This document shows positions 1 to 25,076 of a stretch of DNA of 25,162 nucleotides, piece by piece. Position numbers and translations under genes: made by a program. Below the pieces are notes generated by a model. That model was not told the origin of the DNA and ran no database searches. It worked only from the letters and a program-made list of their open reading frames with translations. Positions within the stretch are counted from its first letter, which is position 1, and the number at the start of each line of letters is the position of its first letter. Origin of the DNA: a virus (lineage: Duplodnaviria > Caudoviricetes); the IMG/VR virus record IMGVR_UViG_3300006802_000512, positions 1 to 25,162 of that record; one strand, written 5' to 3'.

Positions 1-1
1 T

Positions 2-3518: not shown

Positions 3519-4171
3519 TGGCAGTAACATACGCAAATTTTTTAACACAAATTAGAAACTACACAGAAGTAGATAGTAATGTTTTGACTGATGCTATTAT
3601 TCAAGATTTTATAAGATCTGTGGAATTAGATATTGCAGGTAAGGTTGATTATGATGATTTAAGAAAATACTCAAACTCTACGTTTACTGCTTCAAACAGA
3701 TATGTAAGTCTTCCATCTGATTTAACAATTATTAGATCTGTTCAAGTAATTAGCGGTTCTACTAGAACATTTTTAGAAAAAAGAGATACAAGTTTTATAT
3801 CTGAATATAATAACAACGCAGCTACAGGACTACCTAAATATTATGCTAATTGGGATGACTTCAATTTTATAGTAGCTCCAATCCCTGATTCTAATTATAG
3901 TGTACAAATAAACTACATACAGGATCCACCTCAATTTACTTCATCTACCGAAACTTTTATTTCTAAGTATCAGGAGTCTATGTTATTACATGGGACACTA
4001 GCTGAAGCATACCGGTTCTTAAAAGGGCCTATGGATCTATACAACCTCTATCAAAAGAAGTATGATGAAGAAGTACAAAATTTTGCTCTTCAACAAATGG
4101 GGAGAAGAAGACGTGCAGAATACGATGATGGAGTGCCAAGAATTAAGGTTCCTTCACCATCGCCAAATTAA
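3518..4171 (+). CDS. Second adaptor-like virion protein
   Basis: TYANFLTQIRNY...IIQDFIRSVELDI, YVSLPSDL, GLPKYYA, IVAPIPD, LLHGTLAEAYRFLK: pattern typical of phage adaptor/neck proteins. Confidence 0.6.
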   Translation: MAVTYANFLTQIRNYTEVDSNVLTDAIIQDFIRSVELDIAGKVDYDDLRKYSNSTFTASNRYVSLPSDLTIIRSVQVISGSTRTFLEKRDTSFISEYNNNAATGLPKYYANWDDFNFIVAPIPDSNYSVQINYIQDPPQFTSSTETFISKYQESMLLHGTLAEAYRFLKGPMDLYNLYQKKYDEEVQNFALQQMGRRRRAEYDDGVPRIKVPSPSPN

Positions 4172-4192
4172 TAATTTAGAAGGAGGCCTACT

Positions 4193-4627
4193 ATGGCAAT
4201 AACAACTAACGCAATCTGTAATTCTTTTAAAAAAGAATTATTAGAAGCAAAACATGACTTCACTCAGACTACTGGTGATAAATTTAAATTATCTATGTAC
4301 ACTAGCTCAGCAACTTTAGGTAAATCTACAACTTCATTTACAACTGGTAACGAAGTTACGTCACCTGCTGGATACACTTCAGGTGGAGGTGCTCTTGTTA
4401 ACACAGGAACATCATTAGCTTCAAACACAGCTATAACTGACTTTGCAGACCTATCGTTTACAAACGTTACATTAACTGCGAGAGGTTCACTAATTTATAA
4501 TACATCTAACTCTAATAGTGCGGTGGCTGTATTGGATTTTGGTGGTGATAAGACTGCAACTAGCGGAACTTTCACTATTCAATTTCCTGCGTTTACAACC
4601 TCTGCTGCAATATTAAGGATTGCATAA
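4193..4627 (+). CDS. Virion structural protein (tail-associated, beta-rich)
   Basis: Strong AGGAGG SD; Thr/Ser/Ala-rich; FKLSMYT, GYTSGG, ARGSLIYN, VLDFGGDK motifs seen in phage tail modules. Confidence 0.65.
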   Translation: MAITTNAICNSFKKELLEAKHDFTQTTGDKFKLSMYTSSATLGKSTTSFTTGNEVTSPAGYTSGGGALVNTGTSLASNTAITDFADLSFTNVTLTARGSLIYNTSNSNSAVAVLDFGGDKTATSGTFTIQFPAFTTSAAILRIA

Positions 4628-4643
4628 GAAGTAAAAGGTATGA

Positions 4644-5861
4644 ATGTCGAAAACATGGGGTGCACTTGATTGGGGACAAGGTAGCTGGGCAGCACAAGGT
4701 GATGCCGGTGTTACTGTTACTGGTCTAAGTGCCTCCACGACAATCACAAATGTAGTACCTGACACTGAAGTTAATTCAGGTTATGGTAGAGCAGCTTGGA
4801 GCGAAGGTTCTTGGGGTATTGCTGGAGATGTATTAGCTCAAGGGCAACAATTACAAACACAAATTACAGCAGTCGTTGTCGATAACGAAATCAACGTAGG
4901 TTGGGGTGGAGACACTTGGGGAGAAAATGCTTGGGGAGAATTATCAGGTGTTTATCAAGATGTAACTGGACAATCATTAACACCAACAACAGGTTCACCA
5001 ACACCTAGAGGTGATTGTAATATTGAAGTAGGATCTGTTAGCTTAACATCATCTATTGGCCAAGGTATATACGGAGTATCATTTACTTTTGATGCTACTG
5101 GGTTATCTTTATCTACCTCAATGGGAGAAGAGACAATTGGAATAGGTGTAAACGTAACTGGATCACAACTTCAAACAACTCCTGGAGGAGTAACTATTGA
5201 TGAAAGCTTACTAACTGGAATTGGTTGGGGTAGAAGAGCTTGGGGTAACCTTGCTTGGGGTGAAGCATATTCAGTAGTATTAACTGGACAAGAATTATCA
5301 TCTTCAATTGGTGAAGAGACAGCGTTTACAGATGTTACTGTATCTGTCACTGGACAAGAAATGTCTATGACTTTAGCTGGTAACTTCTCAATACAAATTG
5401 ACCAAGATATATTTGTATTTGCAACAGAAGACCAATTAGATTTATCATTAGGTAACTTTAGTTTAGAACAAAGCACTAATGAAACAGCTACCGGACAACA
5501 ATTAACAAGCACTACTGGAGACGTAGAAGCATTTCAAAACACGCCTGTTGATGTAACAGGAATATCACTATCTTCAAGCTTAGGTTCTATTAATTTAATA
5601 CAATCAACCGTAGAGCCTGTAACAGGTATTGCAGCAACTTTGGAACTAGGGGACGAAGAAGAAATTCCAGGACAAGTTATAGGTGTGACGGGTCAGGCCT
5701 TAACATCAGCTGCAGGTTCTGTAACAATTGCAGCAAATGCTGATGTTTCATTAACTGGCATATCATTGACTTCTTCAGTAGGTGCACCTAATATAACTGC
5801 GTGGGCTGAAATAAATCCAGGTGTAAACAATGTTTGGGAGCCTGTTGACTTAGCCGCTTAG
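4644..5861 (+). CDS. Repeat-rich acidic virion/tail protein (WG clusters and ~22-aa TG-x-x-L repeats)
   Basis: Four aromatic-x4-W-x4-W clusters and ~14 VTGQxLxxxxG-like units; lies between the structural gene and the fibre. Confidence 0.65.
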   Translation: MSKTWGALDWGQGSWAAQGDAGVTVTGLSASTTITNVVPDTEVNSGYGRAAWSEGSWGIAGDVLAQGQQLQTQITAVVVDNEINVGWGGDTWGENAWGELSGVYQDVTGQSLTPTTGSPTPRGDCNIEVGSVSLTSSIGQGIYGVSFTFDATGLSLSTSMGEETIGIGVNVTGSQLQTTPGGVTIDESLLTGIGWGRRAWGNLAWGEAYSVVLTGQELSSSIGEETAFTDVTVSVTGQEMSMTLAGNFSIQIDQDIFVFATEDQLDLSLGNFSLEQSTNETATGQQLTSTTGDVEAFQNTPVDVTGISLSSSLGSINLIQSTVEPVTGIAATLELGDEEEIPGQVIGVTGQALTSAAGSVTIAANADVSLTGISLTSSVGAPNITAWAEINPGVNNVWEPVDLAA

Positions 5862-5873
5862 CAATAGTAAAAT
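5845..5873 (+). promoter_or_regulatory. sigma70-type promoter for the tail fibre gene
   Basis: TTGACT(5845-5850)-N17-TAAAAT(5868-5873); AGGAG SD at 5886-5890, ATG 5901. Confidence 0.7.
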
Positions 5874-5900
5874 TATACTTAAATTAGGAGAAAAAAATTT

Positions 5901-7151
5901 ATGGCATCTAATTATTCATCTGACCTTGCACTGGAGTTAATGACCACTGGTGAAAACGCTGGTACATGGGGAGATAAAACTAATACAAACTTAAACTTAA
6001 TTCAACAAGCAGTCGCTGGTTATGAAGCAGTAGCATTAGCTGATGGTGGAACAGTAACACTAGTTATGTCTGATGCTGCATTATCAAATGCAAGAAACAT
6101 GGTAATTAAATTTACTGGTACTTTAACTGGAGCTTCTGCTGTACATATTCCAGACTCAATAGAAAAATTTTATATATTTGATTGTTCTGCTGTTACAGGT
6201 GTAACAAACTTAACTATCAAAACTGTTAGTGGAACTGGCTTTACTGTAGGCGAAGCAAAAATTATAGCTGCTTACACAGACGGAACTAACTTAAACGAAA
6301 TTGCACTTAATACAATTGGTGGTACAATTGGTACTGCTCAAATTGATGACGATGCAATTACAAACGCTAAGATTGCAGACGATGCGATTCAAGCTGCACA
6401 AATTTCAAACAACGCAGTTGTAACGGCAGGCATTTTAGATGCAAATGTAACTACTGCTAAAATTGCGGATGATGCAGTAACTCAAGCAAAAATTGCAGAT
6501 GATGCTGTTGGTGCTGACCAACTTGTTAACACTGCAGTAAGTGCAGGAACTTACACAGCTGCAACTATTACAGTTGATGCTCAAGGAAGACTTACTGCTG
6601 CTTCTGCAGGAGCTTCTGCAGTTCCAGATATGATACTTACTCAATCATTTGTTGGCCCATCTTCTGGAACTTTTACAAAATCAACTAACGCTAATTTTGT
6701 TGGGTCTTACATTGTTGGTGGCGGAGGAAATGGTGGTAACAACCAACCTGGATTTAACTCAACTGGAGGAACTGGTGGAAAAGGTGGCTTCGGTTATTTT
6801 GCTGCACCCTCAGGAAGTCCATTAACAGTCCCTTACTCTATTCCTGGCCCTGGTGGAGGAACAACAAATCTTTCAAACATTGGTAGAGCTAATGGTGGAG
6901 GTGAAGGACAAACTGGAAGAAACTCTAATGGATTTAGAGGAGCTCCTGGTACTGTCGGAAGTATTACAACTGCTCCATCAAACATTGCAAATGTTTCTTA
7001 TGACTACGGAGGAAACACAGGTTTTGCGGATAATATAAGACTTATTATTACTGGTTCAAACAACATCGGTTCAGGTGGCCCTAACGGAACAGCACCGGGT
7101 TCACAAGGAAGACCAGGCGGAATAATAGTTTATGAGGATTTAGGTACGTAA
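5901..7151 (+). CDS. Tail fibre / receptor-binding protein
   Basis: Fibre-type N-terminus (TGENAGTWGDKTNTNL), 10-aa AKIADDAVT repeats, ITVDAQGRLT knuckle motif, Gly-rich C-terminal domain. Confidence 0.8.
   Translation: MASNYSSDLALELMTTGENAGTWGDKTNTNLNLIQQAVAGYEAVALADGGTVTLVMSDAALSNARNMVIKFTGTLTGASAVHIPDSIEKFYIFDCSAVTGVTNLTIKTVSGTGFTVGEAKIIAAYTDGTNLNEIALNTIGGTIGTAQIDDDAITNAKIADDAIQAAQISNNAVVTAGILDANVTTAKIADDAVTQAKIADDAVGADQLVNTAVSAGTYTAATITVDAQGRLTAASAGASAVPDMILTQSFVGPSSGTFTKSTNANFVGSYIVGGGGNGGNNQPGFNSTGGTGGKGGFGYFAAPSGSPLTVPYSIPGPGGGTTNLSNIGRANGGGEGQTGRNSNGFRGAPGTVGSITTAPSNIANVSYDYGGNTGFADNIRLIITGSNNIGSGGPNGTAPGSQGRPGGIIVYEDLGT
6327..6539 (+). repeat. Seven degenerate 30-nt (10-aa) tandem repeats in the fibre shaft
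   Basis: IGTAQIDDDA / ITNAKIADDA / IQAAQISNNA / VVTAGILDAN / VTTAKIADDA / VTQAKIADDA / VGADQLVNTA. Confidence 0.85.
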
Positions 7152-7152
7152 T

Positions 7153-7617
7153 ATGGCAACATTAATTAAAAGAGATAACGGAACTATGCATAAAGTCTGT
7201 TTGACTGAAGCACACGTAAATGCACAAAACCTTCAAGAAGAATTATATACTGAAGGACAATACACTAAAATGGAAATTTCTACAGCTGAGGCAAATGATG
7301 TAAGACATGGAAACAAACATTACATTGAAAATGCTTGGGTTGTTTCAGAAGATAGAGAAGCTCCTGAAGATGGAATTAAAACACATCACTTTCTTAACAA
7401 ATCAGATTTTGATGGAGCAGTTGCTGCAGAGATTAAAATTTTTGAACATTTCTTAGCACTCAATCCTGATAATGCTATGGCAGCAGAAATATCAACTTAT
7501 GTTGATGCTCTTAAAGCTTTAGATACTTCTGGTATTAGTTTCCCATTAGCACATAATGTATGTAGCTATATGGAATCTACAGGTACTACTTCATTCAGTC
7601 CTTTACAATGTCCTTAA
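7153..7617 (+). CDS. Hypothetical protein, possible tail fibre assembly chaperone
   Basis: Immediately after the fibre; C-terminal YVDALKALD-x-S-x-I-x-FP recalls the Tfa-type Y..AL.....WP pattern. Confidence 0.5.
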   Translation: MATLIKRDNGTMHKVCLTEAHVNAQNLQEELYTEGQYTKMEISTAEANDVRHGNKHYIENAWVVSEDREAPEDGIKTHHFLNKSDFDGAVAAEIKIFEHFLALNPDNAMAAEISTYVDALKALDTSGISFPLAHNVCSYMESTGTTSFSPLQCP

Positions 7618-7630
7618 TAATTGATATTTA
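7602..7630 (+). promoter_or_regulatory. sigma70-type promoter (extended -10), probably leaderless, heading the oxygenase cluster
   Basis: TTTACA(7602-7607)-N17-TATTTA(7625-7630) with TG at 7622-7623; ATG 7636 lies 5 nt downstream; no SD. Confidence 0.6.
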
Positions 7631-7635
7631 GCCTT

Positions 7636-8376
7636 ATGGCTAATATCATTGAATTTTCTGCTTCTCCAGAATATTTAGCGACACCCGACATTGAAAAACC
7701 TGTTCCTATAAAAGTTAATATACCTAAATGGTATAAAGACTTAGAACATAAGATGGAGAAGTTAACTGTAAAAGGTTGTATGCCTTTTCTTGATACTTTG
7801 TCATCAGGGTATTTATTAAAACTTCCACAAGATATAGCTATAGGTCTAGATCATTTTGATGATGATGGTAATCCATTAATGCACGTAAGATACTCTTTAC
7901 AAACTGAGATAGGCCCTAAAGAGGGTACAAATTTAAATCATGGGGATCATGAATCTACTCATCCAGTATTTCAATTAGGTGATTCACCTATGGTTGCTAA
8001 AAATAATGGCAGACCTTTTCACAAAATAATTAGTCCTTGGAGAATAAAAACACCACCAGGATATAGTTGTTTATTTTTACCACCTATGAATAACTATCAT
8101 GAACCATGGAGTATTATTCCTGGGATTGTAGATACTGATAAATTTACACTAGAAGTTAATTTTCCTACAATTGTTGATGCAGAAAAGATTAAAACTAAGT
8201 ATAAACAATTTTTAATGAAGAAAGGCACACCTTATGTTCAAATCATTCCTTTTAAAAAAGAAAGTTGGCAAATGAATATTAAACCACTAGAAAACAAAAA
8301 AAGTGTCTTTTTATATCCAATGAAATTACTACATAACTATAAAACAGCTTTTTGGAGAAAGATTACATGGAAATAA
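7636..8376 (+). CDS. DUF6065-like hypothetical protein (start revised from TTG 7621 to ATG 7636)
   Basis: IPKWYK, TVKGCMPFLD, GYLLKLP, PWRIKTPPGYSCLF, GIVDTD, KKGTPYVQIIPFK motifs; a family I recall beside 2OG oxygenases in marine phages. Confidence 0.55.
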   Translation: MANIIEFSASPEYLATPDIEKPVPIKVNIPKWYKDLEHKMEKLTVKGCMPFLDTLSSGYLLKLPQDIAIGLDHFDDDGNPLMHVRYSLQTEIGPKEGTNLNHGDHESTHPVFQLGDSPMVAKNNGRPFHKIISPWRIKTPPGYSCLFLPPMNNYHEPWSIIPGIVDTDKFTLEVNFPTIVDAEKIKTKYKQFLMKKGTPYVQIIPFKKESWQMNIKPLENKKSVFLYPMKLLHNYKTAFWRKITWK

Positions 8377-8957
8377 GAAGTTTTGTACAAGTTTTTGATA
8401 ATGTATTACACCCTGAGGCTATAGCTTGTTTGCTGCAATGGTTAAATAAAACAGACAGATTTGATAAAGCCGATGTTATAAATGATGCAGGCAAAACTAG
8501 AAAAGGTGTATTGAGAGAAGATATAAGAAAAACAGAAGCTTTTGGATTACACCCCTTAGATAAAGAATTGACTTCTGTACATTGGTTTAATGTACTACGA
8601 ATGAAGATTGAACAACAAGTTAATAATTATAGAATACTTCATCCTAATTTAGATTTACATCCACAAAAAGTAGAAGAAATAAATGCACTTAGATATAAAC
8701 CAGGTGGCTTTTATAAGTATCATACTGATTATCATATTAAGTTTCCAAGAGTCTTAAGTACAATTACATTACTTAACAATGATTATAAAGGTGGGCAACT
8801 TTGTTTTAGAAACCCTTCGAAAGAAGAAGATTCAGAATTTTGTATAGATGTTAAACCAGGACGAATGATAATGTGGCCAAGTAATTTTTTATATCCACAT
8901 GCTATCAAGCCAATAACAGAAGGTACTCGTTATAGTATAGTGGGGTGGGTATGGTAG
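8367..8957 (+). CDS. 2OG-Fe(II) oxygenase, prolyl-4-hydroxylase-like (start revised from 8352)
   Basis: LRYKPGGFYKYHTD, LSTITLLNNDYKGGQLCF, WPSNFLYPHAIKPITEGTRYSIVGW; GGAG at 8354-8357 before ATG 8367. Confidence 0.9.
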   Translation: MEIRSFVQVFDNVLHPEAIACLLQWLNKTDRFDKADVINDAGKTRKGVLREDIRKTEAFGLHPLDKELTSVHWFNVLRMKIEQQVNNYRILHPNLDLHPQKVEEINALRYKPGGFYKYHTDYHIKFPRVLSTITLLNNDYKGGQLCFRNPSKEEDSEFCIDVKPGRMIMWPSNFLYPHAIKPITEGTRYSIVGWVW

Positions 8958-9508
8958 AACGTGTAACAAGACCATTTAAGTATAGAGTAATAAAAGGTTT
9001 TTTAGATAAAACAGAAATTAAATTATTAACTGATTATACTAGAATTAAACACAGACTTAATAGAGAAACATTTGATCTTGAACAAAGTAATAATTATGCA
9101 ACCATTTTTTATAAAGACCCTTTAACAGAAACAATTATGTTACAAAAAAAAGAAATGATGGAAATAGAAACTGGTTATAAATTATTTCCAACTTATTCTT
9201 TTTTTAGAATGTATACTTTTGGATCTGATCTAAAACCTCATACTGATAGATCTTCTTGTGAAGTGAGTGTAACTGTATCTATTGGTTCTGATGGAACTCC
9301 TTGGCCTATCTATATGGATGGTAAAGAAGTGATGTTAGAACATGGAGATGCAGCAATTTATTTTGGTTGCGAAATACCTCACTGGAGAAAACCATTTAAA
9401 GGTGATTGGTATGCACAAACTTTTTTACATTATGTAAATAAAGATGGGCCACACAAAGAGTGGTTAAAAGATAAAAAACTGTTATGGGGCCAAACCGAGG
9501 AGGATTAA
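8951..9508 (+). CDS. 2OG-Fe(II) oxygenase-like protein
   Basis: RMYTFGSDLKPHTDRSSCEVSVT, GDAAIYFGCEIPHWR, QTFLHY; ATG 8951 preferred over the GTG at 8945. Confidence 0.75.
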   Translation: MVERVTRPFKYRVIKGFLDKTEIKLLTDYTRIKHRLNRETFDLEQSNNYATIFYKDPLTETIMLQKKEMMEIETGYKLFPTYSFFRMYTFGSDLKPHTDRSSCEVSVTVSIGSDGTPWPIYMDGKEVMLEHGDAAIYFGCEIPHWRKPFKGDWYAQTFLHYVNKDGPHKEWLKDKKLLWGQTEED

Positions 9509-9727
9509 ATGCAAATACAACAAAATGAAGACGGCAGTGCAGATATACTTTTTGAAGATAGTGAAATTACTATTTTAACACAAAAAAAGAAATTACATTT
9601 AGATGCAGAAGGTTTGCGGCATTTTGGTAATATTTTGGTAAAGATTGTATCTGATTGGAATCTTAACTTTAACGAAGATTTAAAAAATAAAGCAACACAT
9701 GATACTACACGTGTTAAGTTTAAATGA
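9509..9727 (+). CDS. Hypothetical protein (72 aa)
   Basis: GAGGAGG SD directly upstream; ATGA coupling to the next gene. Confidence 0.75.
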   Translation: MQIQQNEDGSADILFEDSEITILTQKKKLHLDAEGLRHFGNILVKIVSDWNLNFNEDLKNKATHDTTRVKFK

Positions 9728-10248
9728 TAACACTGATTGATAATTTTTATCCAGATGAATTATATGCTGATGTTTTAGAACAAGTCAAAACTTTTGATTT
9801 TAATCCTAGTCATCAACCTTGCAGAAAAGATATAAACAGATACCAAGCTTATCCTGTTTATGAAACTAATGATTTGAAAAAAGACAATCCTGCATATCAA
9901 TATTTAGAAAAGAAATTACAAGAGTTTAAATTAAAACCTTTTAAAATGCATACCTTTTATAGAAAAACATTGTTGTCAGAATTAAAAAAAAGTTTATCTT
10001 GGGATAACTATGCGAAACATATTGATGGTGGAGGTATATCTTTAGCAGGAGTTATTTATCTAAATACACAATCTATTCAAGATGGCACATCATTATATAA
10101 TGACTTTTCAGATTATGAACCTACACTTACAGTTGCAAGTAAACCAAATAGATTTATAATGTATAACTCAAATATAATACATAGTCCTGGTGTAAGACAG
10201 TGGCAGGAAGAACGTATTATACAACCATTTTTTATAGAATATGCTTAA
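9724..10248 (+). CDS. 2OG-Fe(II) oxygenase-fold protein (DUF6445-like)
   Basis: IDNFY N-terminus, KHID, LAGVIYLN, GTSLY, NRFIMYNSNIIHS, RIIQPFF. Confidence 0.75.
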   Translation: MITLIDNFYPDELYADVLEQVKTFDFNPSHQPCRKDINRYQAYPVYETNDLKKDNPAYQYLEKKLQEFKLKPFKMHTFYRKTLLSELKKSLSWDNYAKHIDGGGISLAGVIYLNTQSIQDGTSLYNDFSDYEPTLTVASKPNRFIMYNSNIIHSPGVRQWQEERIIQPFFIEYA

Positions 10249-10792
10249 GGACGTTTTAAAAATAGAAAAACCATTAGAAAGACAATCTTGGTTATATGCA
10301 TTTGATCTTGGTAAAATTGATACCGATTATTTTATTAAAAGAATTGATCACTTTGTAAAAGACGAAACTAATGCAAACTATGAAACAAATGTAAGAGGTA
10401 AAATGACTAATAATATATTTATGGAAGATCAACAATTTGTAAATATATTACATGTATGTAAAACTTATATAGGTTCTTTTTCTAGAGTATGGGATCATCC
10501 TTGGATATTACAAGATGCATGGGGAGTAAGAAATGATTATGGAGATTATACAAGAAATCATCGACACGGACAAAGTAATATATCAGGATTAATTTATTTA
10601 AATAGCAGCACACAAGAATTAGAATTTCCAGAATTACAAACTAAAGTTAAACCTGAACCGGGAAGAGTAGTTATTTGGGATTCTTTATTAAGGCATGAAT
10701 GTAAACCAAATAGATCAGATATATCTAAATATTCTGTAGTGTTTAACATAGATTATCAAGTAGGTTACGAACATCAAGACTATCGATCTTGA
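10241..10792 (+). CDS. Putative 2OG-Fe(II) oxygenase, HxH type (2OG-FeII_Oxy_5/TIGR02466-like)
   Basis: NHRH, ISGLIYLN, PEPGRVVIWDSLLRHEC, KYSVVFNI. Confidence 0.8.
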   Translation: MLKDVLKIEKPLERQSWLYAFDLGKIDTDYFIKRIDHFVKDETNANYETNVRGKMTNNIFMEDQQFVNILHVCKTYIGSFSRVWDHPWILQDAWGVRNDYGDYTRNHRHGQSNISGLIYLNSSTQELEFPELQTKVKPEPGRVVIWDSLLRHECKPNRSDISKYSVVFNIDYQVGYEHQDYRS

Positions 10793-10811
10793 AGACTGCT
10801 TATGATATAAT
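10783..10811 (+). promoter_or_regulatory. Extended -10 promoter, probably leaderless for the nozzle gene
   Basis: TCGATC(10783-10788)-N17-TATAAT(10806-10811) with TG at 10803-10804; ATG 10817 lies 5 nt downstream; no SD. Confidence 0.7.
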
Positions 10812-10816
10812 ATGGC

Positions 10817-12985
10817 ATGCCATTAAAAAATGTACAAATACAGCCAGGATTTAATAAACAAACAACTGCTGTCGGTGCTGAAGGTCAGTGGACTGATGGA
10901 GATTTTGTTAGGTTTAGATATGGTTTACCAGAAAAAATAGGTGGATGGGCACAGATTACAGGTCAAACTTTAGTTGGTGCAGTCCGAGAACAGCTTGTAT
11001 GGGCTGATTTGGATGGCAGAAGATATGCAGCTTTAGGTTCTAATAAAGCTTTATTTATTTATTATGAAAGTGCTTTTTACGATATTACACCATTGGACAC
11101 TGCTATTACTGGTTGTACTTTTGGTACAACTAACGGTCTAACAGAAGTAGGTGTTAATAAAACTGCACATGGTTTAGAGGTTGGAGATTTATTTACTTTT
11201 ACATCTGTAACCCCTCCCGTAGGAGCAGGATATGTTGCAGCAGATTTTACCACTAATACTTTTCAAGTAGTTACCGTACCTTCAACAGATGCTTTTACAA
11301 TTACTATGGCTACGGGTGCTGGAACGACAGTATCTAACAGTGGATCAGCTGTAGTTAATCCTTATATAAAACCAGGGCCACTTACTCAATCTGCAGGTTA
11401 TGGTTACGGAACTTCTACTTTTGGTGGAGCTTCTGGAGTCTTAGGAAGTTTAAATGGATCTCTAAATGATGACACCGCAGGAACGGGCGGGTCAGGAACT
11501 TCAATAACGCTTGCCTCAACAAATGGCTGGCCAACGTCTGGAACTTTTAAAGTTGGAACAGAATTTATATCTTATACAGGAGTATCATCAAATGATCTTA
11601 CTGGTATTACGAGAGGTGTAGCAGGAACTCGATCTGCACACTCTTCTGGTGCTACTTGTGAATACTACACTGCATGGGGAGATGCTTCATTATCTTCCAC
11701 AGTTGTACTAGACTCTGCATCTTGGTCTTTAGATCATTTTGGACAAAAACTAATTGCAACTATTAAAAATGGTAAAACATTTGAATGGGATCCTCTTAAT
11801 GTATCTACTGCAGCTTTAACAACAAGAGCTACTGTAATATCAGGAGCACCTACAAAATCAGTTATGTCGATTGTTTCTGAAAGAGATAGACATTTAATTA
11901 TGATTGGAACAGAAACAACTATTGGTCAAACTGCATCACAAGATAAAATGTTTATTAGATTTTCTGATCAAGAAAATATTAACGATTACACAGCTACTTC
12001 AGTAAATACCGCAGGATCTTTAAGGCTTGATTCTGGTGTTAAGATAGTTGGTGCAGCTAAAGGAAAAGACTATATTTTAATATTAACAGATACTTCTGCA
12101 TACATTATGCAGTTTGTTGGCCCACCATTTACTTTTTCTCTTAGACAAGTAGGTTCTAATTGTGGTGCAATAGGTCAACATGCAATTAAATATGTTAATG
12201 GTAAAGTATTTTGGATGGGACAAGCAGGAGGCTTCTTTGTTTATGATGGTACAGTTAAATCATTACCTTGTTTAGTAGAAGATTTTGTATTTACATTTAC
12301 AGGAAATAATGTGGTTACAGACAATATTGGAATTAACTACACTAATGGCGAACAAGTATATGCAGGTTTAAATCATTTGTATGAAGAAATTACTTGGTTC
12401 TATCCTAAGAATGGTTCTGATGAAGTAGACAGACAAGTTACATACAACTATGCAGAGAACACTTGGCATACAGGATCTCTAGCTAGAACTTCTTGGACTG
12501 ATTCTACATTATATGACAACCCATACGCGACAGACTACGATACGACTGGTGTTCCTACGTACCCTACTATTCAAGGAGTGACAGCGGAAAACGGAGCAAC
12601 AACTTATTACGCACACGAAATAGGAACTGACCAAACAGACAATGATGGTAATGTAACACAAACTATAACTTCTTACTTGCAATCTGGTGACTTTGATTTA
12701 GATATTAATGGAGATGGTCAAATGTTTATGAGTATGAGAAGGTTTATACCTGACTTTAAAAAAATAGTTGGTAATGCTAGTATTACAATAGGTCTTAAAA
12801 GATATCCTTCCTCTACCTCAGCATCATCACCACTTGGGCCTTTTACAATTACAAGCACTACTGATAAGGTAGACACACGTGCAAGATCTAGATTTGCAAG
12901 TGTAAAGATAGAAAATTTATCTAGTGGAGAGAGTTGGCGATACGGAACATTTAGAGCAGATGTACAACCAGATGGTATGAGATAA
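10817..12985 (+). CDS. Tail nozzle / DNA stabilisation protein (P22 gp10 / tail tubular B-like beta-propeller)
   Basis: 722 aa; VRFRYGLPEKIGGW, FIRFSDQE, NTAGSLRL, GSNCGAIG, FWMGQ, EITWFYP, TRARSR...WRYG C-terminus. Confidence 0.72.
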   Translation: MPLKNVQIQPGFNKQTTAVGAEGQWTDGDFVRFRYGLPEKIGGWAQITGQTLVGAVREQLVWADLDGRRYAALGSNKALFIYYESAFYDITPLDTAITGCTFGTTNGLTEVGVNKTAHGLEVGDLFTFTSVTPPVGAGYVAADFTTNTFQVVTVPSTDAFTITMATGAGTTVSNSGSAVVNPYIKPGPLTQSAGYGYGTSTFGGASGVLGSLNGSLNDDTAGTGGSGTSITLASTNGWPTSGTFKVGTEFISYTGVSSNDLTGITRGVAGTRSAHSSGATCEYYTAWGDASLSSTVVLDSASWSLDHFGQKLIATIKNGKTFEWDPLNVSTAALTTRATVISGAPTKSVMSIVSERDRHLIMIGTETTIGQTASQDKMFIRFSDQENINDYTATSVNTAGSLRLDSGVKIVGAAKGKDYILILTDTSAYIMQFVGPPFTFSLRQVGSNCGAIGQHAIKYVNGKVFWMGQAGGFFVYDGTVKSLPCLVEDFVFTFTGNNVVTDNIGINYTNGEQVYAGLNHLYEEITWFYPKNGSDEVDRQVTYNYAENTWHTGSLARTSWTDSTLYDNPYATDYDTTGVPTYPTIQGVTAENGATTYYAHEIGTDQTDNDGNVTQTITSYLQSGDFDLDINGDGQMFMSMRRFIPDFKKIVGNASITIGLKRYPSSTSASSPLGPFTITSTTDKVDTRARSRFASVKIENLSSGESWRYGTFRADVQPDGMR

Positions 12986-16452: not shown

Positions 16453-17266
16453 AGATATAGGACAAAAGGTTAATAGAGAAGGTGCGGCTAAACCTATTTG
16501 GATAGGTAAATCAAGTGTACCACATATATATGTAGCTACGCCTGTTCACGATCAAGTTAGTATTCATTTCACACAATCTATACTAGACTTTCAAAAGTAT
16601 TGTTTTCAAAACAAATTAAAAGTAACTTTTCAATTAGTTAAATCATCATTAGTAACCCAAGGCAGAAACTTATGTGTTGCAGATTTTTTAACTTCCGGTG
16701 CTGACTATTTATTATTTATTGATTCAGATATTGAATTTGAACCAGGCACCATTCAAGCTATGATAGACAAAGACAAAGAGCTTATATCAGCTCCATACCC
16801 ATTGAAAAATATTAATTGGAAAAAAGCATTTGAAAAGATTCAAGCAGGAGATGTTAAAACATTAGAAGATCTTTCTAACGCAATCTATCAATATCCACTT
16901 AGAGTTCCAAATGAACACGATATAAGTATGCATGAAGGGATAATAGAAGTAACTCATGGTGCTACTGGTTGTATGTTAATAAAACGTAGTGTTTTTGATA
17001 AATTAATGAAAGCTTATCCTGATAAAACTATTGTTCAAAAAACAGTTATGAATGGTGAACTAGTTGATAAAGATAACCTATGGAATTTCTTTGATACTTT
17101 ATACGATTCAAAGACTAAAATGTATATGGGTGAGGACTTTGCTTTCTGCAAATTATGGAAAGATATAGGTGGTAAATGCTATAGTTACGTACTAGACCCA
17201 ATTACCCACGTAGGCGAATTTAAATATAGTGGAAGGTTCGCTGATGAGTTGATAATCAATAAGTAA
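16445..17266 (+). CDS. Glycosyltransferase, GT-A fold (GT2-like)
   Basis: IYVATPV, GRNLCVADFL, DYLLFIDSD (DxD), ATGCMLIKRSVF, GEDFAFC. Confidence 0.8.
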   Translation: MIKDIGQKVNREGAAKPIWIGKSSVPHIYVATPVHDQVSIHFTQSILDFQKYCFQNKLKVTFQLVKSSLVTQGRNLCVADFLTSGADYLLFIDSDIEFEPGTIQAMIDKDKELISAPYPLKNINWKKAFEKIQAGDVKTLEDLSNAIYQYPLRVPNEHDISMHEGIIEVTHGATGCMLIKRSVFDKLMKAYPDKTIVQKTVMNGELVDKDNLWNFFDTLYDSKTKMYMGEDFAFCKLWKDIGGKCYSYVLDPITHVGEFKYSGRFADELIINK

Positions 17267-17277
17267 AATGGTATTAT
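17249..17277 (+). promoter_or_regulatory. sigma70-type promoter for the ejection/internal protein operon
   Basis: TTGATA(17249-17254)-N17-TATTAT(17272-17277) with TG at 17269-17270; AAGGAG SD at 17297-17302. Confidence 0.72.
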
Positions 17278-17298
17278 TTACCATTTAAAGATCTTTAA
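17266..17298. repeat. Two adjoining inverted repeats (operator-like)
   Basis: AAATGGTA-ttatt-TACCATTT (17266-17286) and perfect palindrome TTAAAGATCTTTAA (17285-17298). Confidence 0.6.
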
Positions 17299-17313
17299 GG
17301 AGAACGTTTATAA

Positions 17314-18321
17314 ATGTTACAATTTTTACCCTATGCACTTGCCGCCTACGGAGGATACAGAGGTTATAGAGATGCTAAGAAATCTGGGGCTTCAGGAATA
17401 GGAAGATTATTATCGGCTGGTACAGGTGCCGCTATGGGCTACTATGGAGGTAAAATGATACCAGGTGTATCTACATCTGGATTTACTCCATTTACATCAA
17501 CAGCTTTTGGTCAGTCACTTCCTTTTGTTGGTGCAACACAATCAGCAGCAGCACAAACTGGTGGATTATCTGCAATGCAACAAGCACAAATTGCAAGTAG
17601 CGGAGCAGATCCAGGATTAGCATTATCTCAAATGCCAGCAGGAGGTGAAGGAAACCCAACTGATCCAAGAAGTTTTTTACAAAAAATGTTTTATAAAAAA
17701 GATGCACCATCAGAAGTAGATCCATTAAAATTATTTGCAGGTGTATCTGGACTAAGTTATGCATCAGGTGCTTTTGAACAAGGCCCAGTAGATATGTATC
17801 AACCTACATACAATATAGCTTACAAAGAATTTGCAGAGAAAAGACCTAACTTTAAATATATAGATCCACAAACTGGTGATGAAAAAAATTACGAAAAAGT
17901 TTACATACCTGAAGGTAATGTTGAGGGCAATCCATATCAAATGGTTAAATCTAGATTAAGAGAAGGTGGGTTAGCTGAAATAAAAAAATTTAATGAGGGT
18001 GGTATTAATTATTTACCATCAAAAACATCTCATGACGAGTATGATTCTAACAATTATGTTAGAGCAACTGGTTATGTAGAGGACGGATCCGGAACAGGAG
18101 ACAAAGACGAGGATACGATGTTAGCTCAATTAGCAGACGGAGAGTTTGTAACAAGAGCAGACGGTGTATTAGGTGCTGGTTTAATAGCTGGAGCAAATCC
18201 TACAAGCATAAAAGATATGCGAGAAAAAGGTGCGGCTTACTTCTATGAACAGCAAAAAAGATATAAAAGAATTTTTGACTTAATAGGAGAAGCACGTGGC
18301 ACGAGCAGCAAAAAAAATTAA
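17314..18321 (+). CDS. Internal virion / DNA ejection protein
   Basis: Gly-zipper N-terminus; LREGG/FNEGG; GSGTGDKDEDTMLAQLADGEFVTRADGV motif as in tape-measure/ejection proteins. Confidence 0.6.
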   Translation: MLQFLPYALAAYGGYRGYRDAKKSGASGIGRLLSAGTGAAMGYYGGKMIPGVSTSGFTPFTSTAFGQSLPFVGATQSAAAQTGGLSAMQQAQIASSGADPGLALSQMPAGGEGNPTDPRSFLQKMFYKKDAPSEVDPLKLFAGVSGLSYASGAFEQGPVDMYQPTYNIAYKEFAEKRPNFKYIDPQTGDEKNYEKVYIPEGNVEGNPYQMVKSRLREGGLAEIKKFNEGGINYLPSKTSHDEYDSNNYVRATGYVEDGSGTGDKDEDTMLAQLADGEFVTRADGVLGAGLIAGANPTSIKDMREKGAAYFYEQQKRYKRIFDLIGEARGTSSKKN

Positions 18322-18757
18322 ACCATCAGTAAATATTGTACCTGTTCTACCTAAAGACGTAGAAAGATTTTGGCCTTTAGCTGAATTTATGATTAAAGAA
18401 GCGTTAATTTATTCTGGAAGATATGCAGAATCTTCTGACATATATAGTCTATTATTAAAAGATGAGGCACAACTATTTGTTATGTTTGGATCTGATGAAA
18501 CAGAAGAGAATAAAGTATTTGGTATAGCTGTAACAAGAATAGGTTCTATGCCTAATTACGATCAGTTAGAAATTATTATATGTACAGGTAAAAGAAGAGA
18601 GCTATGGGAAGATAAAATTGTAGCTCATATAACTAACTTTGCTAAACAAAACAAATGTAAAAGACTTTGCATTTGGGCAAGACCTGGTTGGGAAAAAGTT
18701 TCCAAAAAATGGGGATGGAAGAAAAAACACGTTCAACTAGTAAAGGATATTAAATGA
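18296..18757 (+). CDS. GNAT-fold-like virion assembly protein (position of P22 gp14 / T7 gp13)
   Basis: QLFVMF...FGIAVTRI...LEIIICTG...FAKQNKCKRL..WARPGWEKV; GTG start with AGGAG SD. Confidence 0.55.
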   Translation: MARAAKKIKPSVNIVPVLPKDVERFWPLAEFMIKEALIYSGRYAESSDIYSLLLKDEAQLFVMFGSDETEENKVFGIAVTRIGSMPNYDQLEIIICTGKRRELWEDKIVAHITNFAKQNKCKRLCIWARPGWEKVSKKWGWKKKHVQLVKDIK

Positions 18758-19620
18758 GTTTTGTAAGTAATTTATTTGGTGGAGGCGGTGGAGCACCAGC
18801 ATCAACTCCTGCATCTCAAACACAATTTGTTAGAGAAGCTCCAGGTATAGAAGAAAGAAAACTTGAGTTGATGGATATCGCGAGACAAGTTTCTCAAGAT
18901 CCAATTAAATTACCTGGTATACAAGTTGCCGGATCTGGTCTTGGATCAGCTTTACAACAACAAGGACTAACGGCTGCCGGAACAACAGGTGCGGGTGCTG
19001 GAACTGTTAACCAAGGTATAGCACAAGTATTAGGTGCAGCAGCTCCTGTAGGTCAATCACAAATAAATCAATTTTTAAATCCTTATCAATCTTATGTTAC
19101 TGATGAAATTGGAAGACAAGGACAAATCATGCAAAACCAACTATCGGCACAGGCAGTTAATCAAGGTGCCTTTGGTGGAGGACGTGAGGGTGTTCAACAA
19201 GCGGAATTACAAAATAGAATTTTGGAAGCTCAGGGTAGAGCTAATGCTCAAGGATTTGGAACTGCATTAGGTGCAGCTCAAAGACAACAACAATTAGGTA
19301 TGGCTGCTGGTCAACAATTAGGAAACTTAGGTGCTGGTCAACAACAAATGGCTCAAGCAGATATTAATCAACTAATGGCTTCTGGTGGAATTCAACAGCA
19401 ATTAGCTCAACAAGCACTTGATGCACAAAGACAAACTACTTTACAACAACAATACGAGCCTTACCAAAGAGCAGAGTTTCTTGCAAACTTATATGCTGCA
19501 GGGCCTAAATCACAGTCTGGAATTACGATGACAACACAACCTGGCACAAGTCCATTAGCACAATCTATCGGAACAGGATTAGGAGCATTCACGGCATACC
19601 AAGCTGGACAACAACAATAG
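18754..19620 (+). CDS. DNA ejection/transfer protein (P22 gp7-like role), Gln/Gly/Ala-rich
   Basis: LFGGGGG N-terminus, FLNPYQ, GAFGGGR, C-terminal IGTGLGAFTAY. Confidence 0.65.
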   Translation: MSFVSNLFGGGGGAPASTPASQTQFVREAPGIEERKLELMDIARQVSQDPIKLPGIQVAGSGLGSALQQQGLTAAGTTGAGAGTVNQGIAQVLGAAAPVGQSQINQFLNPYQSYVTDEIGRQGQIMQNQLSAQAVNQGAFGGGREGVQQAELQNRILEAQGRANAQGFGTALGAAQRQQQLGMAAGQQLGNLGAGQQQMAQADINQLMASGGIQQQLAQQALDAQRQTTLQQQYEPYQRAEFLANLYAAGPKSQSGITMTTQPGTSPLAQSIGTGLGAFTAYQAGQQQ

Positions 19621-19628
19621 GAGGATTA

Positions 19629-21821
19629 ATGTCAATTAATAATGTTTTAAATCGTCCTATTTTTAGAAAACAAGCTTTACGTAAAGGTCATCTTAAAGTA
19701 ATCAAAGCGAATACTGGTACTTATACAGGAAGTTATCTTCCACTAGATCCAAGAACATCAACTCCTAAAGGCCCTGGTTTTTTTTCAAAGTTAGGTTCTG
19801 ATATAGGTGGAGTAGGAAGAAATATTAAAGACCCAAGATTTTTAATTAATGCTCCTTTTGGTATGGGTGGTGCTACTACTAGAACTGCAGGAGCATTTGG
19901 GTTGTACCCTTTAATTGGTGAAGCAACAAGAAAATTAGGAATGACAGGCGTTGGAAAAGATGTTGCAGATTTAGGTATATCTGCAGCGTTATCAAGAAAT
20001 CCATATGCTGTTGGTGCGGGATTATTATATGGTGGTTATAGAGCAGCACGTCCTGTTATCGGAAGAGGAGTAGATTTAATTAAAGAAAGACCACTAGGTA
20101 CAACTGCATCTAATGCAAGTTTTATGCCTGGTATTGAAGGTGTGTTAGGTAAACCAATTAATCAAGTATCACTAGAAGAAATGGTTAAGAATAATCCTAA
20201 AGGAAGACCAATAAATAAACCGGGTGAAAGAAATAAAATAGCATCAGGAAGAGGTGCAGGAGATAAAGAAACTGCTGTTGGATATAAACCATTTGATGAT
20301 GCTGTTGCAGGAGTTACAGATAATTTAACTGTACCTGATAATATGGCTGAATTACCTGGAGAGCCTAAAGTTGATATAACTAAAGTAGTAAACAACATCG
20401 CACCAGTGCCACCGGAAACAGGTATTACTGCAGATGCTCCACCACCTAAAAAGGATACTAAACTTGCAAAAATAGAAACACAAGAAACTGAACAAAAACC
20501 AGGTGGAACACAATCTGCTGGTGACATTGTTACATCAGCAAATGAAAATTTAAACCAACCAACTAGAATAACTTCTGCAGATGGTGCACAAGTTACAGAT
20601 GATATTATTGCAAGAGCAAGAAAAATAAGAACAGAATTAATGCAAGGTCAATCATCGCAAGCTAAACTTGTATTCTTAGCTAACTTAGCTTCTGGATTAA
20701 TGTCTGGTACTACAAGCAAAGCTGGTATTGGTGGAGCTATGGAAGTATTTGGTAGAGCTTTAGGCCCAGCTGTAAATAATTATGCAATGATTAAACTTAA
20801 AGAAAATGAATTACAAAATGAATTTATGCAGAGTGCATTAGAGATTGCTTCTGATGAAATGGATAGAAAAAACAAAGCTTATGAATATCCTGAAGGAGAC
20901 CCAGGTGTTGTTCAATTTTTTAACGAAAATGGAAAAACGGTTAACATGACAGGAATTAGATTAAAAGATGGTACAGTACAAGTAGCTATGCCAGGACAGT
21001 ATGATCAAAATGGAAGAAATGTTTATAGAACAATTCCACCAGGACAATACAATAGATTTGCAAAAAATGATGAATTAGCTAAACCACAAATAGAATTGTT
21101 AAAAGAACTAGAAGGTAAGTACAGAGCTTATGCATTAGGACAAAAATCAATTAATATTCTTAGAGAGTTTCAAGAAAAAGGTGAAACTGGAGCAGGGCCA
21201 GTTGGACGATTCAATTTATTTAGTCAAAGATTAGGAAGTGCGTTTGAAGATATTACAGGAAGAAAAATGTATGACTCTGCAGAAGCAGCTAATGAAAGAT
21301 TACAGTTTGAAAGAGATAAATTAATAAATGACTTAATGGTTGGAGAAGATTTAGAAAGAAAACAAGCTGAGAAAAAAGTAGACAGTTTACTTGGAGACTC
21401 AGTTGTTAAAGATAAAATTATGAAAGCTATCCAACAAGCTACTGGTGAAGAAGATAAACAGAAACTTTCTCAATTAGCTATTAACGAAACGGTGATGGTT
21501 TACGCGTTAGCGAACTCATTAAAATCAAAAGACCGTTTAACAGAAAAAGATATTAAGATGGCTAAAGAACTTGTAAACATCTTCCCATTATTAAGAGGTC
21601 AAAGAGATGTAATTAGAGATTTATCGTCAGTGAATAATACAATCCTAGGAGATATACAATCTTTAGAAAATCAATGGAGAGATGGATTACTTGGAGAAAC
21701 TGGAACATTAGATAATTTCAAAAGAAAATATGGAATTACTTCAGGAACAGGTGATCAACCAGAAGAATTAACAAACCCATTCACTGATAAATCAACTGAA
21801 GAATTATTGGAGATGTTCTAA
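19629..21821 (+). CDS. Large internal virion / DNA transfer protein
   Basis: 730 aa; Gly-rich hydrophobic N-terminal part, Pro-rich linker, helical C-terminus; GGAGGA SD; position in the ejection block. Confidence 0.6.
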   Translation: MSINNVLNRPIFRKQALRKGHLKVIKANTGTYTGSYLPLDPRTSTPKGPGFFSKLGSDIGGVGRNIKDPRFLINAPFGMGGATTRTAGAFGLYPLIGEATRKLGMTGVGKDVADLGISAALSRNPYAVGAGLLYGGYRAARPVIGRGVDLIKERPLGTTASNASFMPGIEGVLGKPINQVSLEEMVKNNPKGRPINKPGERNKIASGRGAGDKETAVGYKPFDDAVAGVTDNLTVPDNMAELPGEPKVDITKVVNNIAPVPPETGITADAPPPKKDTKLAKIETQETEQKPGGTQSAGDIVTSANENLNQPTRITSADGAQVTDDIIARARKIRTELMQGQSSQAKLVFLANLASGLMSGTTSKAGIGGAMEVFGRALGPAVNNYAMIKLKENELQNEFMQSALEIASDEMDRKNKAYEYPEGDPGVVQFFNENGKTVNMTGIRLKDGTVQVAMPGQYDQNGRNVYRTIPPGQYNRFAKNDELAKPQIELLKELEGKYRAYALGQKSINILREFQEKGETGAGPVGRFNLFSQRLGSAFEDITGRKMYDSAEAANERLQFERDKLINDLMVGEDLERKQAEKKVDSLLGDSVVKDKIMKAIQQATGEEDKQKLSQLAINETVMVYALANSLKSKDRLTEKDIKMAKELVNIFPLLRGQRDVIRDLSSVNNTILGDIQSLENQWRDGLLGETGTLDNFKRKYGITSGTGDQPEELTNPFTDKSTEELLEMF

Positions 21822-24800
21822 TGGCTACATCAATAAAAGCATTACAGAAAAGTTTAGATGACAAAAGTTTAGATCCATCTAGATTATCAAAAGAACAAAG
21901 ACAAATTATAGATACTTTAATTGAAAGAGGTGATCTTAAAGGCCCATCAATGGGCGAACTACAATCACAAAGAAGTTTTGCTGCTAAAAATATAGCAAGA
22001 GAAGAAGAATACCTTAAAGATCCAATTGCGGCAGCTTTAGCAGCAGAAGATAATCCTTACTTTGTAAAAGGCAGACCAACTGCAGAATTAGCAGGTGACC
22101 TATCAGGATCAATTGCACCATACTTACTAATGAGAAAAAAAATATATGGTGCCGCTAAATCAGGAAACTTATGGCAAAAAGGCCCTGGCTTCTTTAAGAA
22201 AGCTGCAGATAAATTAGCAGATAAGATGCCTGGCAGATTAAAATTATTTGGTGGTGCTCTTAAATTACTTGCAAGAGTAGCTGATGCTCCAGCTAAAGTA
22301 GTTAAAAGTCCATTAGGTAGAGCTGAGTTATATTCAGTTATGGGAGGTACAGCAGGTGCTGGTGTAGGTTCTGTTACTTATGATGTATTAAATGAACAAG
22401 CAGGAACTTTAATTGCAAGTACAATTACAGATGAGTTTGCAGATATACCTCAACAAAAAATAGATAACGATATTTTATTAAATGCTGCAGATGCAACTAA
22501 GAACGCTTTAATGTGGAACGCAGGAGCTGCTGCACTTACACCATTTATTTCAGGGCCAATAGGTAAATTAGGTTCTAAATTATTTGGCACTAAAGGTGCT
22601 AAGGCAAAAGAGTTGGCACAATATGCAAGAGATAAAGGATTACCTTTACCACTTAACACTGCGATTGAAGATGGAGTTTTATCTGGTGTAGGTAAAGATT
22701 ATTTTAAAACAGTTGGTGTATTTCCATTTATATCTGGTATTGGAAGAGAAGCTTTACAAGGTGCTGAACAAGCTGCAGGTAAACAATATTTAAATTCATT
22801 AGCAAAATTTGCACCTATCATGAAAACATCCGCATTATCTTCTTCTATTTATAATCAAGCAGCTAAAGTATTTGCTGATAGATCTGCATTAATTGGAGCT
22901 AAGTATAAAGCATTTGATACATTAGCTGAAACAGTTGGTAACCCTAAAGTTATTCCAATGGAAAATTTAAAAAGAATATCAACAGAATTTTTAGATCAAA
23001 ATAGACAAATGTTTCCTAATATGGATAGATTTATATCTGATGGTGTTAATCCACAAAAGATAAATGAAATTTTAAAAATGTCAGGTGATCCACTTAATCT
23101 TTTTATGCAAGCAGTAAAAATGATGGGTGATGAAATGATTACTCCTAAACAATACGGTGGTTTAATGAAAATGATGAACCGAGCTATTGAAGGAACACAA
23201 TATCAAAATATAAGAGCTTCTGTATTTGGGTTAAGAGAAGCTATGGAAAATGATTTAAATTCATTTGGTGCAAAATTGACAAAAGATACTTTTTTAAAAG
23301 ATGAAGGTATTAAAACTGCGTACGAAGAAATGTCTAAAGGCCAAGGTAAAGAAGTAGCAGAATCATTTTTAAACAACAACTTAAGAGATGCTGAACAACT
23401 TTATGCTAAACTATATGATGCTAATGCAACCTTCTCTGCATCTATGGGTTTTTTAAAGAAAGCAGGTGGTCTTGTAGGTAAAATGAGAGGGTTTGATCAA
23501 AATTTATTTACATCACAAGGTGTAAATGGAATCTATGGAATGCAAAGATTTCCTAGAGATAAGATGTTTCAAACTATGGAAAGAGATGTATTTGCATCTA
23601 ACTCACCTGAAGCTATTGAACAATTCAAAGTTATTATTGGAGCTGCAGGGCCTAAAGCTTCTGACAATGGAAAAAGATTATTTGAAGCTGCTAAAGCAAG
23701 ATATATGTTTAATGCATTCTTAGGATCATTTGATTCAGCAGGAAGTCCAGCTGCACAATCAATCTTTAAAGATGTTGTTGGTGAATCACTTGGTGTTAAA
23801 GCAGGAACTGAATATGCACAAGATGCTATGAGAGCAATAGGTTCAGAAGCTATGGAAGCAAGAAGAGGTTTTAGTATAGATGATGTAAAACTAAACAATG
23901 GTATTTATGATTTAAGTCAAATTAGATTTAGTCCAAAAGACTTTGCTGATTTTAATATAAACAAATTCATGAACAAGTTAGGTGTAGGAGAAGCTACAGC
24001 AGACTTAGGTAGAGCTAAAATGGCTAGCTTACTAGGTAAAGATGGTGCTCAAGATTTCTTTAAATTCGCTAACTATATGAAAGCAGTTTCGGATGTACCT
24101 TTATCCGATACATCTACCTTCTTACAGAGAAGAATGACACTCGGGTCATTTGGATCTGTAGCTGGTGGTATGTTTGTAGGTGCGGGTATGTTTGCAGTAA
24201 ATCCTTTCGCTCCTGCAATATTTTTATTATTAGCTAGACGTGCTGGTAAAATGTTAACAGACCCTACTGCATTAAGATATATGAATGATGCATTAGGTGT
24301 AGATGAATTAGTACAAGGTCTTAAAGGAAAAGGTATAGGAGTAGATGGTAAATTTAAAATAAGAAGTATCAATCCTAAATTAACAGCTGCAGGCTTAACT
24401 CAGAAAAGAGAAGCGTTTGCAAGACTTGCAAACTATATGGCTGATGAAGATAAAGATTTACCAAGGGTAAATCCTAAAGATGTAGATCCTAAAGCTATCC
24501 AAGAAAAGTTATTAAATATGTCATACAATATTGAACAACCTAGATACGATGATAAAACAATACCAAAAGATACACTTGAAGCTATGTTTGCTCAAGATTT
24601 TGCAAAAAGCTCGGGTAACGTTAATACAGATAATCAAATGGTAGACTATATTAAATCAACTATGGTTAATCAGGAAGCTGTTGAAATTGATCAAGCAGCT
24701 AGAGATGAAGAAGCTGATCAAGCAGGTATAACTGATGATATGGAGTTAGCAGATGTTGGACAAGCTGTTAATAATAATCAACAACCTATGATAGCACCGG

Positions 24801-25064: not shown

Positions 25065-25076
25065 TATGAATGACTA

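Follow-up and report, generated by a model that had tools for sequence, protein, structure and literature searches.

Absence of GGWCC from the window

The locus studied here raises the question of why a tailed phage should spell every Gly-Pro dipeptide with glycine codons that it seldom uses elsewhere. A sequence-only reading of the window (the whole 25,162-nt stretch analysed, from IMG/VR record IMGVR_UViG_3300006802_000512) had attributed this to total avoidance of the word GGWCC, and exact counts confirmed that the absence is real, with zero GGACC and zero GGTCC. In the 34 called genes (8,281 codons), we recovered the same 18 in-frame Gly-Pro pairs, all on the plus strand within 4025..23653, of which 10 were GGC-CCN (6654, 6846, 7077, 7912, 12119, 17782, 19770, 20763, 21941 and 22181) and eight were GGG-CCN (4025, 9446, 11375, 12836, 19501, 21195, 22553 and 23648), with none using GGA or GGT; the orthologous pairs in non-avoiding relatives are mostly GGW. 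GGA and GGT do dominate the glycine codons of the window, as had been claimed (596 of 687), GGS making up 91 of 687 (13%), or 73 of the 669 outside Gly-Pro (11%). The GGS share of 20% assumed earlier was therefore too high, which made the accompanying estimate conservative; given the measured share outside Gly-Pro, 18 GGS codons in 18 pairs have a probability of about 5e-18 (Fisher, 3e-17).

Comparison with synonymously shuffled sequences, a check that had been proposed, placed GGWCC far below expectation under both types of shuffle: the mean was 17.5 sites and the minimum 12 in 1,000 synonymous shuffles, and 14.5 and 8, respectively, in 1,000 shuffles with the next base also held. The majority of the expected sites fell within Gly-Pro pairs. 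GGSCC was over-represented, with 19 occurrences against 3.6 and 7.1 expected under the two shuffle types, the 19th (at 9487) lying outside any in-frame Gly-Pro pair. GATC, GANTC, CCGG and CCWGG were near expectation, in agreement with the earlier observation that these words are not depleted. Contrary to what had been supposed, the depletion was not unique to GGWCC, because GCGC was also absent (14.4 and 6.1 expected under the two shuffle types), as was CGWCG.

Identity, gene content and population of the phage

The window (1..25162), free of GGWCC, GCGC and CGWCG, is the late-gene half of an HTVC023P-type podovirus. Core genes and their order are common to this phage and HTVC023P/HTVC027P (25 orthologues, 63% identity; genome type of about 60 kb), and its DNA polymerase A is 61% identical to that of HTVC023P. 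The gene for a 722-aa virion structural (stabilisation) protein (10817..12985, plus strand; phrog_3287, E 1e-88; 58% to HTVC023P gp72), with three recoded Gly-Pro pairs inside, served as the marker for finding relatives and for trees. A cluster of 2OG-Fe(II) oxygenase-like genes (8352..10792, plus strand) is common across the phage group and has no tie to the purge. Further along the plus strand, a group-1 glycosyltransferase gene, a 151-aa ORF and a second glycosyltransferase-like ORF occupy 15090..17266; the 151-aa ORF (15997-16452, plus strand) is cupin/JmjC-like, its fold being judged by eye with no Pfam match. The same gene content and order, with many 2OG-Fe(II) oxygenases and glycosyltransferases, are described for HTVC023P-type pelagiphages by Wittmers et al. 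2022 (PMC9599517); that paper also reports a thymidine-hypermodification pair (thymidylate-synthase/aGPT-PPlase) in clades V, VIII and IX, which we did not see among the ORFs scanned here.

From the closest cultured relatives, we infer a SAR11 (Pelagibacter) host, which is supported by a Peptidase M15 endolysin (957..1433, plus strand) with 77-82% identity to those of four cultured Pelagibacter phages. Hosts outside SAR11, namely Roseobacter or a gammaproteobacterium, are infected by phages more remotely placed in the group, and SAR11 is accordingly a likely host here. The search for a host link in the genome collection gave only three contigs, inside a Maricaulis MAG and too distant at 45-55% identity.

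A second IMG/VR record, G003 (45,915 nt, 73% completeness), is 99.99% identical to the window and likewise lacks GGWCC, GCGC and CGWCG, with 19.2 GGWCC sites expected when codons and protein are preserved. Joined to two overlapping extensions, it covers 56,532 nt of this phage population, which contain 0 GGWCC, 48 GGSCC, 0 GCGC and 1 CGWCG. The phage was present in 14 DNA runs from nine studies (eight without the possible source) dated 2014-2025, with at least 91% of the sampled words found in each; RNA runs with small word shares were excluded from this count. Long contigs from the DNA runs were mostly 0-5 letters off the phage of the window, and none of the 40 variants listed (of 40 + 106) created GGWCC or GCGC. 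These occurrences and variants rule out an assembly artefact.

Probable selection on the word GGWCC

In the 56,532 nt, 45 GGWCC sites would be expected from four non-avoiding genomes, and none was found. Frames other than that of Gly-Pro were also empty (0 vs 14.6 expected from the four genomes, p 5e-7). The six one-mismatch word classes, except GGSCC, had the same density as in two of the non-avoiders, G592 and G595, whereas GGSCC was two to three times denser. We used G592, the closest complete non-avoider, as the reference for orthologue comparison and found that, among 17 Gly-Pro pairs common to both phages, 14 are GGW in G592 and GGS here; that aligned columns hold 21 Gly-Pro pairs in each; and that 16 of the 22 alignable GGWCC sites of G592 are resolved synonymously here. 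GGWCC was thus lost through synonymous recoding, in which Gly-Pro was retained and GGA/GGT became GGC/GGG, and the target of the purge is the DNA word, in every frame, with neighbouring words spared. The proposal that a GGWCC-directed pressure shapes codon choice is upheld by these cleared frames and recoded pairs.

Distribution among related phages

The same test in related phages showed that the avoidance is lineage-specific. Unlike the phage of the window, HTVC023P keeps 66 GGWCC sites, with GGW-CCN in 53 of its 61 Gly-Pro pairs, and three near-complete relatives keep 38 to 48 (G592, 48; G595, 44; G596, 38); 50-kb parts of HTVC027P and 023Pt_psg01 contain 49 and 55, respectively. Each of the two scans for relatives, by tail gene and by polymerase, covered the top 80 of some 600 matches. 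Among the 78 tail-gene loci covered that measured 4 kb or more, only L021 (the same phage) and L057 lacked GGWCC. Of the 79 polymerase loci covered, 10 lacked it, eight belonging to the close clade and two (L251 and L307) being distant and too short to call. We considered avoidance throughout the family and rejected it, since most relatives within the top 80 of each scan kept GGWCC. Among the polymerase loci with at least 91% nucleotide identity (again within the top 80), eight of nine lacked GGWCC, the ninth being G593, which has three sites in 36.9 kb; L100 and L098 have one site each, and the purge is therefore not absolute in the wider clade. One of the G593 sites differs by a single letter, where the surrounding stretch is 0.7% divergent, and the other two lie within tracts that are 6-7% divergent, indicating that GGWCC sites still arise or enter.

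Two other loci, L057 and L320, likewise lack both GGWCC and GCGC. In the tail-gene tree L057 was placed among non-avoiders, and a clade of the window and L057 was rejected (p-AU 0.012, for 17 rows and one gene, tested after the first tree had been viewed); a second origin of avoidance in L057 is suggested.

The losses of other words are nested. CGWCG is nearly absent also from HTVC023P, G595, G596 and G592; GCGC is missing from G592 and the close clade of the window phage; and GGWCC is missing only from that clade. Different words are missing elsewhere, 023Pt_psg01 lacking CATG and CTNAG, and HTVC010P lacking CTNAG, GTSAC and more. GCGC and CGWCG may have been lost in earlier purges, driven in a similar way by other systems.

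Search for a cause within the phage

Scans with PHROGs and Pfam covered the ORFs of the window and its extensions, about 62 kb in all (overlapping sets of 34, 52, 26 and 16 proteins), and in none of these ORFs did they detect a DNA-methyltransferase or restriction family. The sole methyltransferase found in them was a Methyltransf_24 protein; this protein and a ParB-like ORF had weak PHROG matches (E 5e-4 and 1.5e-4). The 151-aa cupin/JmjC-like ORF was considered as an avoidance gene, its homologue in the second avoider, L057, sharing 50% identity, but it was rejected because non-avoiders also carry it (31-38% identity in three).

The sequence-only reading had further argued that the phage DNA is not globally shielded by hypermodification, which would favour protein substrates for the oxygenases and glycosyltransferases. 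The first part holds only in a narrower form, in that the purge indicates that GGWCC is probably unshielded, and says nothing about the substrates of modification enzymes. The second part is not supported: relatives with GGWCC intact, HTVC023P among them, have oxygenase and glycosyltransferase genes of the same sorts, and the purge is thus silent on their substrates.

Candidate AvaII/SinI-type systems in SAR11 genomes

We surveyed 401 genomes of one order, centred on genome G121 and taken from an Alphaproteobacteria sample. G121 has 1.2 Mb, 29% GC and a rhodopsin, and genomes of its order have roughly 1.0-1.5 Mb; because of these sizes, and because a homologue of a G121 gene (81% identity) is named Candidatus Pelagibacter, we read the order as Pelagibacterales. 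A C5 methyltransferase was found in 72 of the 401 genomes and an RE_SinI nuclease in four (1%), with a C5 methyltransferase adjoining the nuclease at all four loci. The search of host genomes for GGWCC enzymes that had been proposed thus yielded candidates, and these loci show that SAR11 genomic islands carry what are, by homology, pairs of an AvaII-family nuclease and a C5 methyltransferase.

Two of the nucleases were searched against the PDB and matched 6G3B (E 1e-28 and 2e-27), which is AvaII and cuts GGWCC (PMC7337904). According to that paper, H108, M112 and E115 of AvaII select A/T at the centre and E123, D147, Q161 and K163 are catalytic; identical residues are aligned at all seven positions in the four SAR11 nucleases. 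Of the G:C-reading residues N116, N167, T168, N170 and S171, all five are present in the G396 nuclease, and N167 and N170 in all four; at N116 and S171 the other three depart from the AvaII residues, as do two of them at T168. GGWCC specificity is predicted for the SAR11 nucleases. The purged word is thus the site of AvaII/SinI-type restriction-modification (R-M) enzymes (PF09570; PDB 6G3B; PMC7337904), whose catalytic and centre-reading residues these nucleases keep; they are encoded by candidate hosts and not by the window, and their cleavage of GGWCC is a prediction.

The motif-IV Gly-Pro is GGS in all four SinI-type methyltransferase genes, which are homologues and not independent, compared with nine of 32 other SAR11 C5 methyltransferases. 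Gly-Pro pairs in SAR11 genes are GGW-CCN in 25/32 to 38/53. The carrier genomes keep GGWCC, with 31-49 sites per 57-100 kb examined, and so show no depletion, and the system is sporadic: a single set of 80 genomes, sampled around two of the carriers as their relatives, contained no copy of the system and hence no SAR11 lineage fixed for it. A defence held by 1% of genomes looks like a weak cause of a total purge. The idea that GGWCC fingerprints the host finds no support in a system so rare (four of 401 genomes, and none of 80 carrier relatives) whose carriers are undepleted. Metagenomic runs gave no informative co-occurrence: pieces of SinI-like methyltransferase genes were present in two that contain the phage and in one of two that lack it.

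For the other purged words, one genome, G191, encodes a homologue of Hpy99I (E 2e-35), whose site we take to be CGWCG, matching the shared loss of that word. The site of HhaI and HinP1I is presumably GCGC; no member of the HinP1I family exceeded the cut-off among the 401 genomes, one M.HhaI-like SAR11 methyltransferase has a different recognition loop, and for the 362-aa neighbour of its gene neither PDB nor PADLOC gave a match. This sample of 401 genomes thus yielded no GCGC nuclease, in a survey that covered C5 methyltransferases and the HinP1I family. A further SAR11 methyltransferase cluster, with nine members, has a Dcm/DrmMII-like recognition region, which presumably reads CCWGG.

Alternative explanations

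A translational preference for particular Gly-Pro codon pairs, or a target in the mRNA, would require no DNA enzyme, and most of the sites expected in the window do lie within Gly-Pro. The other frames are empty too, however, what is missing is a palindrome with W at its centre, and GGW-CCN is freely used by HTVC023P and in SAR11 genes; we give this explanation practically no weight. Mutational decay, in which the host would place m5C at GGWCC and deamination would follow with no cutting, could draw on the C5 methyltransferases of the SAR11 order, but the expected products, GGWTC and GAWCC, are not enriched (29.9 per 10 kb vs 26.6 and 32.6 in non-avoiders), and the actual change, from central A/T to G/C, runs counter to the AT bias while the amino acids are preserved. 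Such decay is very improbable, and with GGSCC enriched instead of the deamination products, the suggestion of a methylation mark acting through mutation is not supported. The empty non-Gly-Pro frames, the normal neighbouring words and the change from GGW to GGS at kept Gly-Pro pairs together lead us to reject both.

Explanations that invoke an enzyme other than a host type II nuclease fare somewhat differently. The word may be read by another defence, or its methylation may be what is avoided, if phage marked at GGWCC in one host then fell to a methyl-directed nuclease of the following host or met a DISARM-like system that uses the mark. In G396 the immediate neighbour of the pair is an AspBHI/Mrr-type methyl-directed nuclease (a similar ORF occurs in G380), in G337 the pair lies beside a DrmA-containing cluster, and modified GGWCC is reported for marine myovirus-like genomes (PMC8919816). 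All four SinI-type methyltransferases, however, adjoin a nuclease of the cognate family with intact catalytic residues, which suffices, and CCWGG is unavoided (54 vs 52.7 expected) despite the nine-member Dcm/DrmMII-like cluster, and we regard another reader as unlikely. A GGWCC nuclease encoded by a phage, either its own for degrading host DNA or that of a co-infecting phage, or a shield kept by relatives and lost here, seems improbable. The genome of the lineage was put together from overlapping pieces, with the capsid region taken from L098 and L100, possibly other strains, and this leaves such genes some room; but eight ORFs have no homologues in the four non-avoiders and none is a nuclease, the nucleases present (an exonuclease, a homing-endonuclease-like protein and a 133-aa endonuclease-like ORF) are not confined to avoiders, and no ORF is common to all four non-avoiders and missing from the phage of the window.

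Probable restriction-site avoidance in a pelagiphage lineage

Purging of restriction sites by phages is a textbook habit, and ordinary avoidance of a type II restriction site is the best reading of the data. This HTVC023P-type lineage purged every GGWCC by synonymous recoding, in our view probably under AvaII/SinI-type type II restriction in a likely SAR11 host. The AvaII-family enzymes of SAR11 would cut unmethylated GGWCC; incoming phage DNA would be unprotected, since no phage DNA methyltransferase was found; and each site lost would raise survival, until zero remained.

Lytic phages typically avoid the sites of orthodox type II systems, and about a tenth of viral genomes show near-complete elimination of a site (Rusinov et al. 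2018, PMC6286503). The loss seen here is the same as that described there for non-temperate dsDNA phages, that of a short orthodox type II palindrome, and the mechanism is no different; in the present case, however, the host is uncultured, the cognate enzyme is deduced from homology, and the purge is limited to a small clade of a non-avoiding group. Depletion of GANTC has likewise been reported for only some pelagiphage lineages, with past or strain-level restriction and host range proposed as explanations (Seong et al. 2022, PMC9516812), but it concerns another word and is partial, whereas the loss of GGWCC is total and GANTC is at expectation here. That paper reports that none of its eight Pelagibacterales MAGs yielded an R-M system, whereas we find a candidate nuclease-methyltransferase pair in SAR11. 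SAR11 has long been described as nearly R-M-free (PMC9516812), and scattered systems were recently reported (PMC13712998; bioRxiv 10.64898/2026.04.03.716430 and 10.64898/2026.09.15.751803). In a literature search with most subscription journals and supplements outside its scope, no report of GGWCC being purged from a pelagiphage came up.

The finding is of modest value for SAR11, in that a total, recent and lineage-limited purge is phage-side evidence that R-M systems exert real selection, and a specific enzyme-site pair can now be tested, with the cultured, GGWCC-rich HTVC023P as control. More tentatively, and with rather more doubt than belief, we suggest that pelagiphages may carry nested, lineage-specific sets of purged palindromes, in this lineage GGWCC added to the older GCGC and CGWCG, that record the type II systems of SAR11 host islands, in which case either this lineage would have specialised on a Pelagibacter population nearly fixed for an AvaII-like system or defences present in about 1% of SAR11 species would suffice for a total purge. 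If so, barcodes of purged words would foretell the host range of a phage and point to SAR11 restriction enzymes as yet undiscovered, for example one for GCGC.

Purged words and type II-like pairs

The word GCGC was absent from the window (1-25162) and from G003, the 45,915-nt record of the same phage, for which 10.2 occurrences were expected, and CGWCG was almost totally absent from this phage. G592, a relative that retains GGWCC, also lacked GCGC, and CGWCG was nearly missing in HTVC023P, G592, G595 and G596 as well as in the window phage. Sets of purged words differed between pelagiphages, each having its own: CATG and CTNAG in 023Pt_psg01 (L084); CTNAG, GTSAC, ACSGT, AGSCT and ACGT in HTVC010P (L085); and GCGC, CGWCG and, in part, ACGT in G592.

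No GCGC nuclease was found among the 401 SAR11-order genomes. A gene for an Hpy99I-like nuclease with an adjoining C5 methyltransferase was located in one of them, G191 (L155:1495-3065). SAR11-order islands (L139-L208) also carried type II-like pairs of varied kinds, with nucleases of the Eco47II, TdeIII, Bsp6I, NgoFVII and BsuBI/PstI families, and a HaeIII-like methyltransferase. The SinI-type pair was immediately flanked by an AspBHI/Mrr-type methyl-directed nuclease gene in two carriers, G396 (L209:91-1284) and G380 (L210:186-1379), and in a third, G337, it adjoined a DISARM-like cluster with DrmA (L228:817-10542); another such cluster with DrmA was present in G121 (L121:6803-17816).

Phage genes and related lineages

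A 483-aa tryptophan-halogenase-family gene (L092:14706-16157; E 4e-93), adjoined by the small terminase subunit, was conserved throughout the GGWCC-avoiding clade and missing in four non-avoiding genomes. Among the loci examined, a 243-aa ORF (window 1430-2161) was confined to this clade; it had no match in Pfam or PHROG and appeared glycosyltransferase-like by eye. In locus L111, a 138-aa homing-endonuclease-like ORF (973-1389; phrog_5046), with a LAGLIDADG-like motif read by eye, followed a portal-like gene.

Three contigs of HTVC023P-type phage DNA (L113-L115) in a Maricaulis MAG probably represent binning contamination. Both GGWCC and GCGC were missing from a second lineage (L057 and L320), with 61% protein identity to the window phage; these losses probably arose independently, and the two lineages may possibly share a host.
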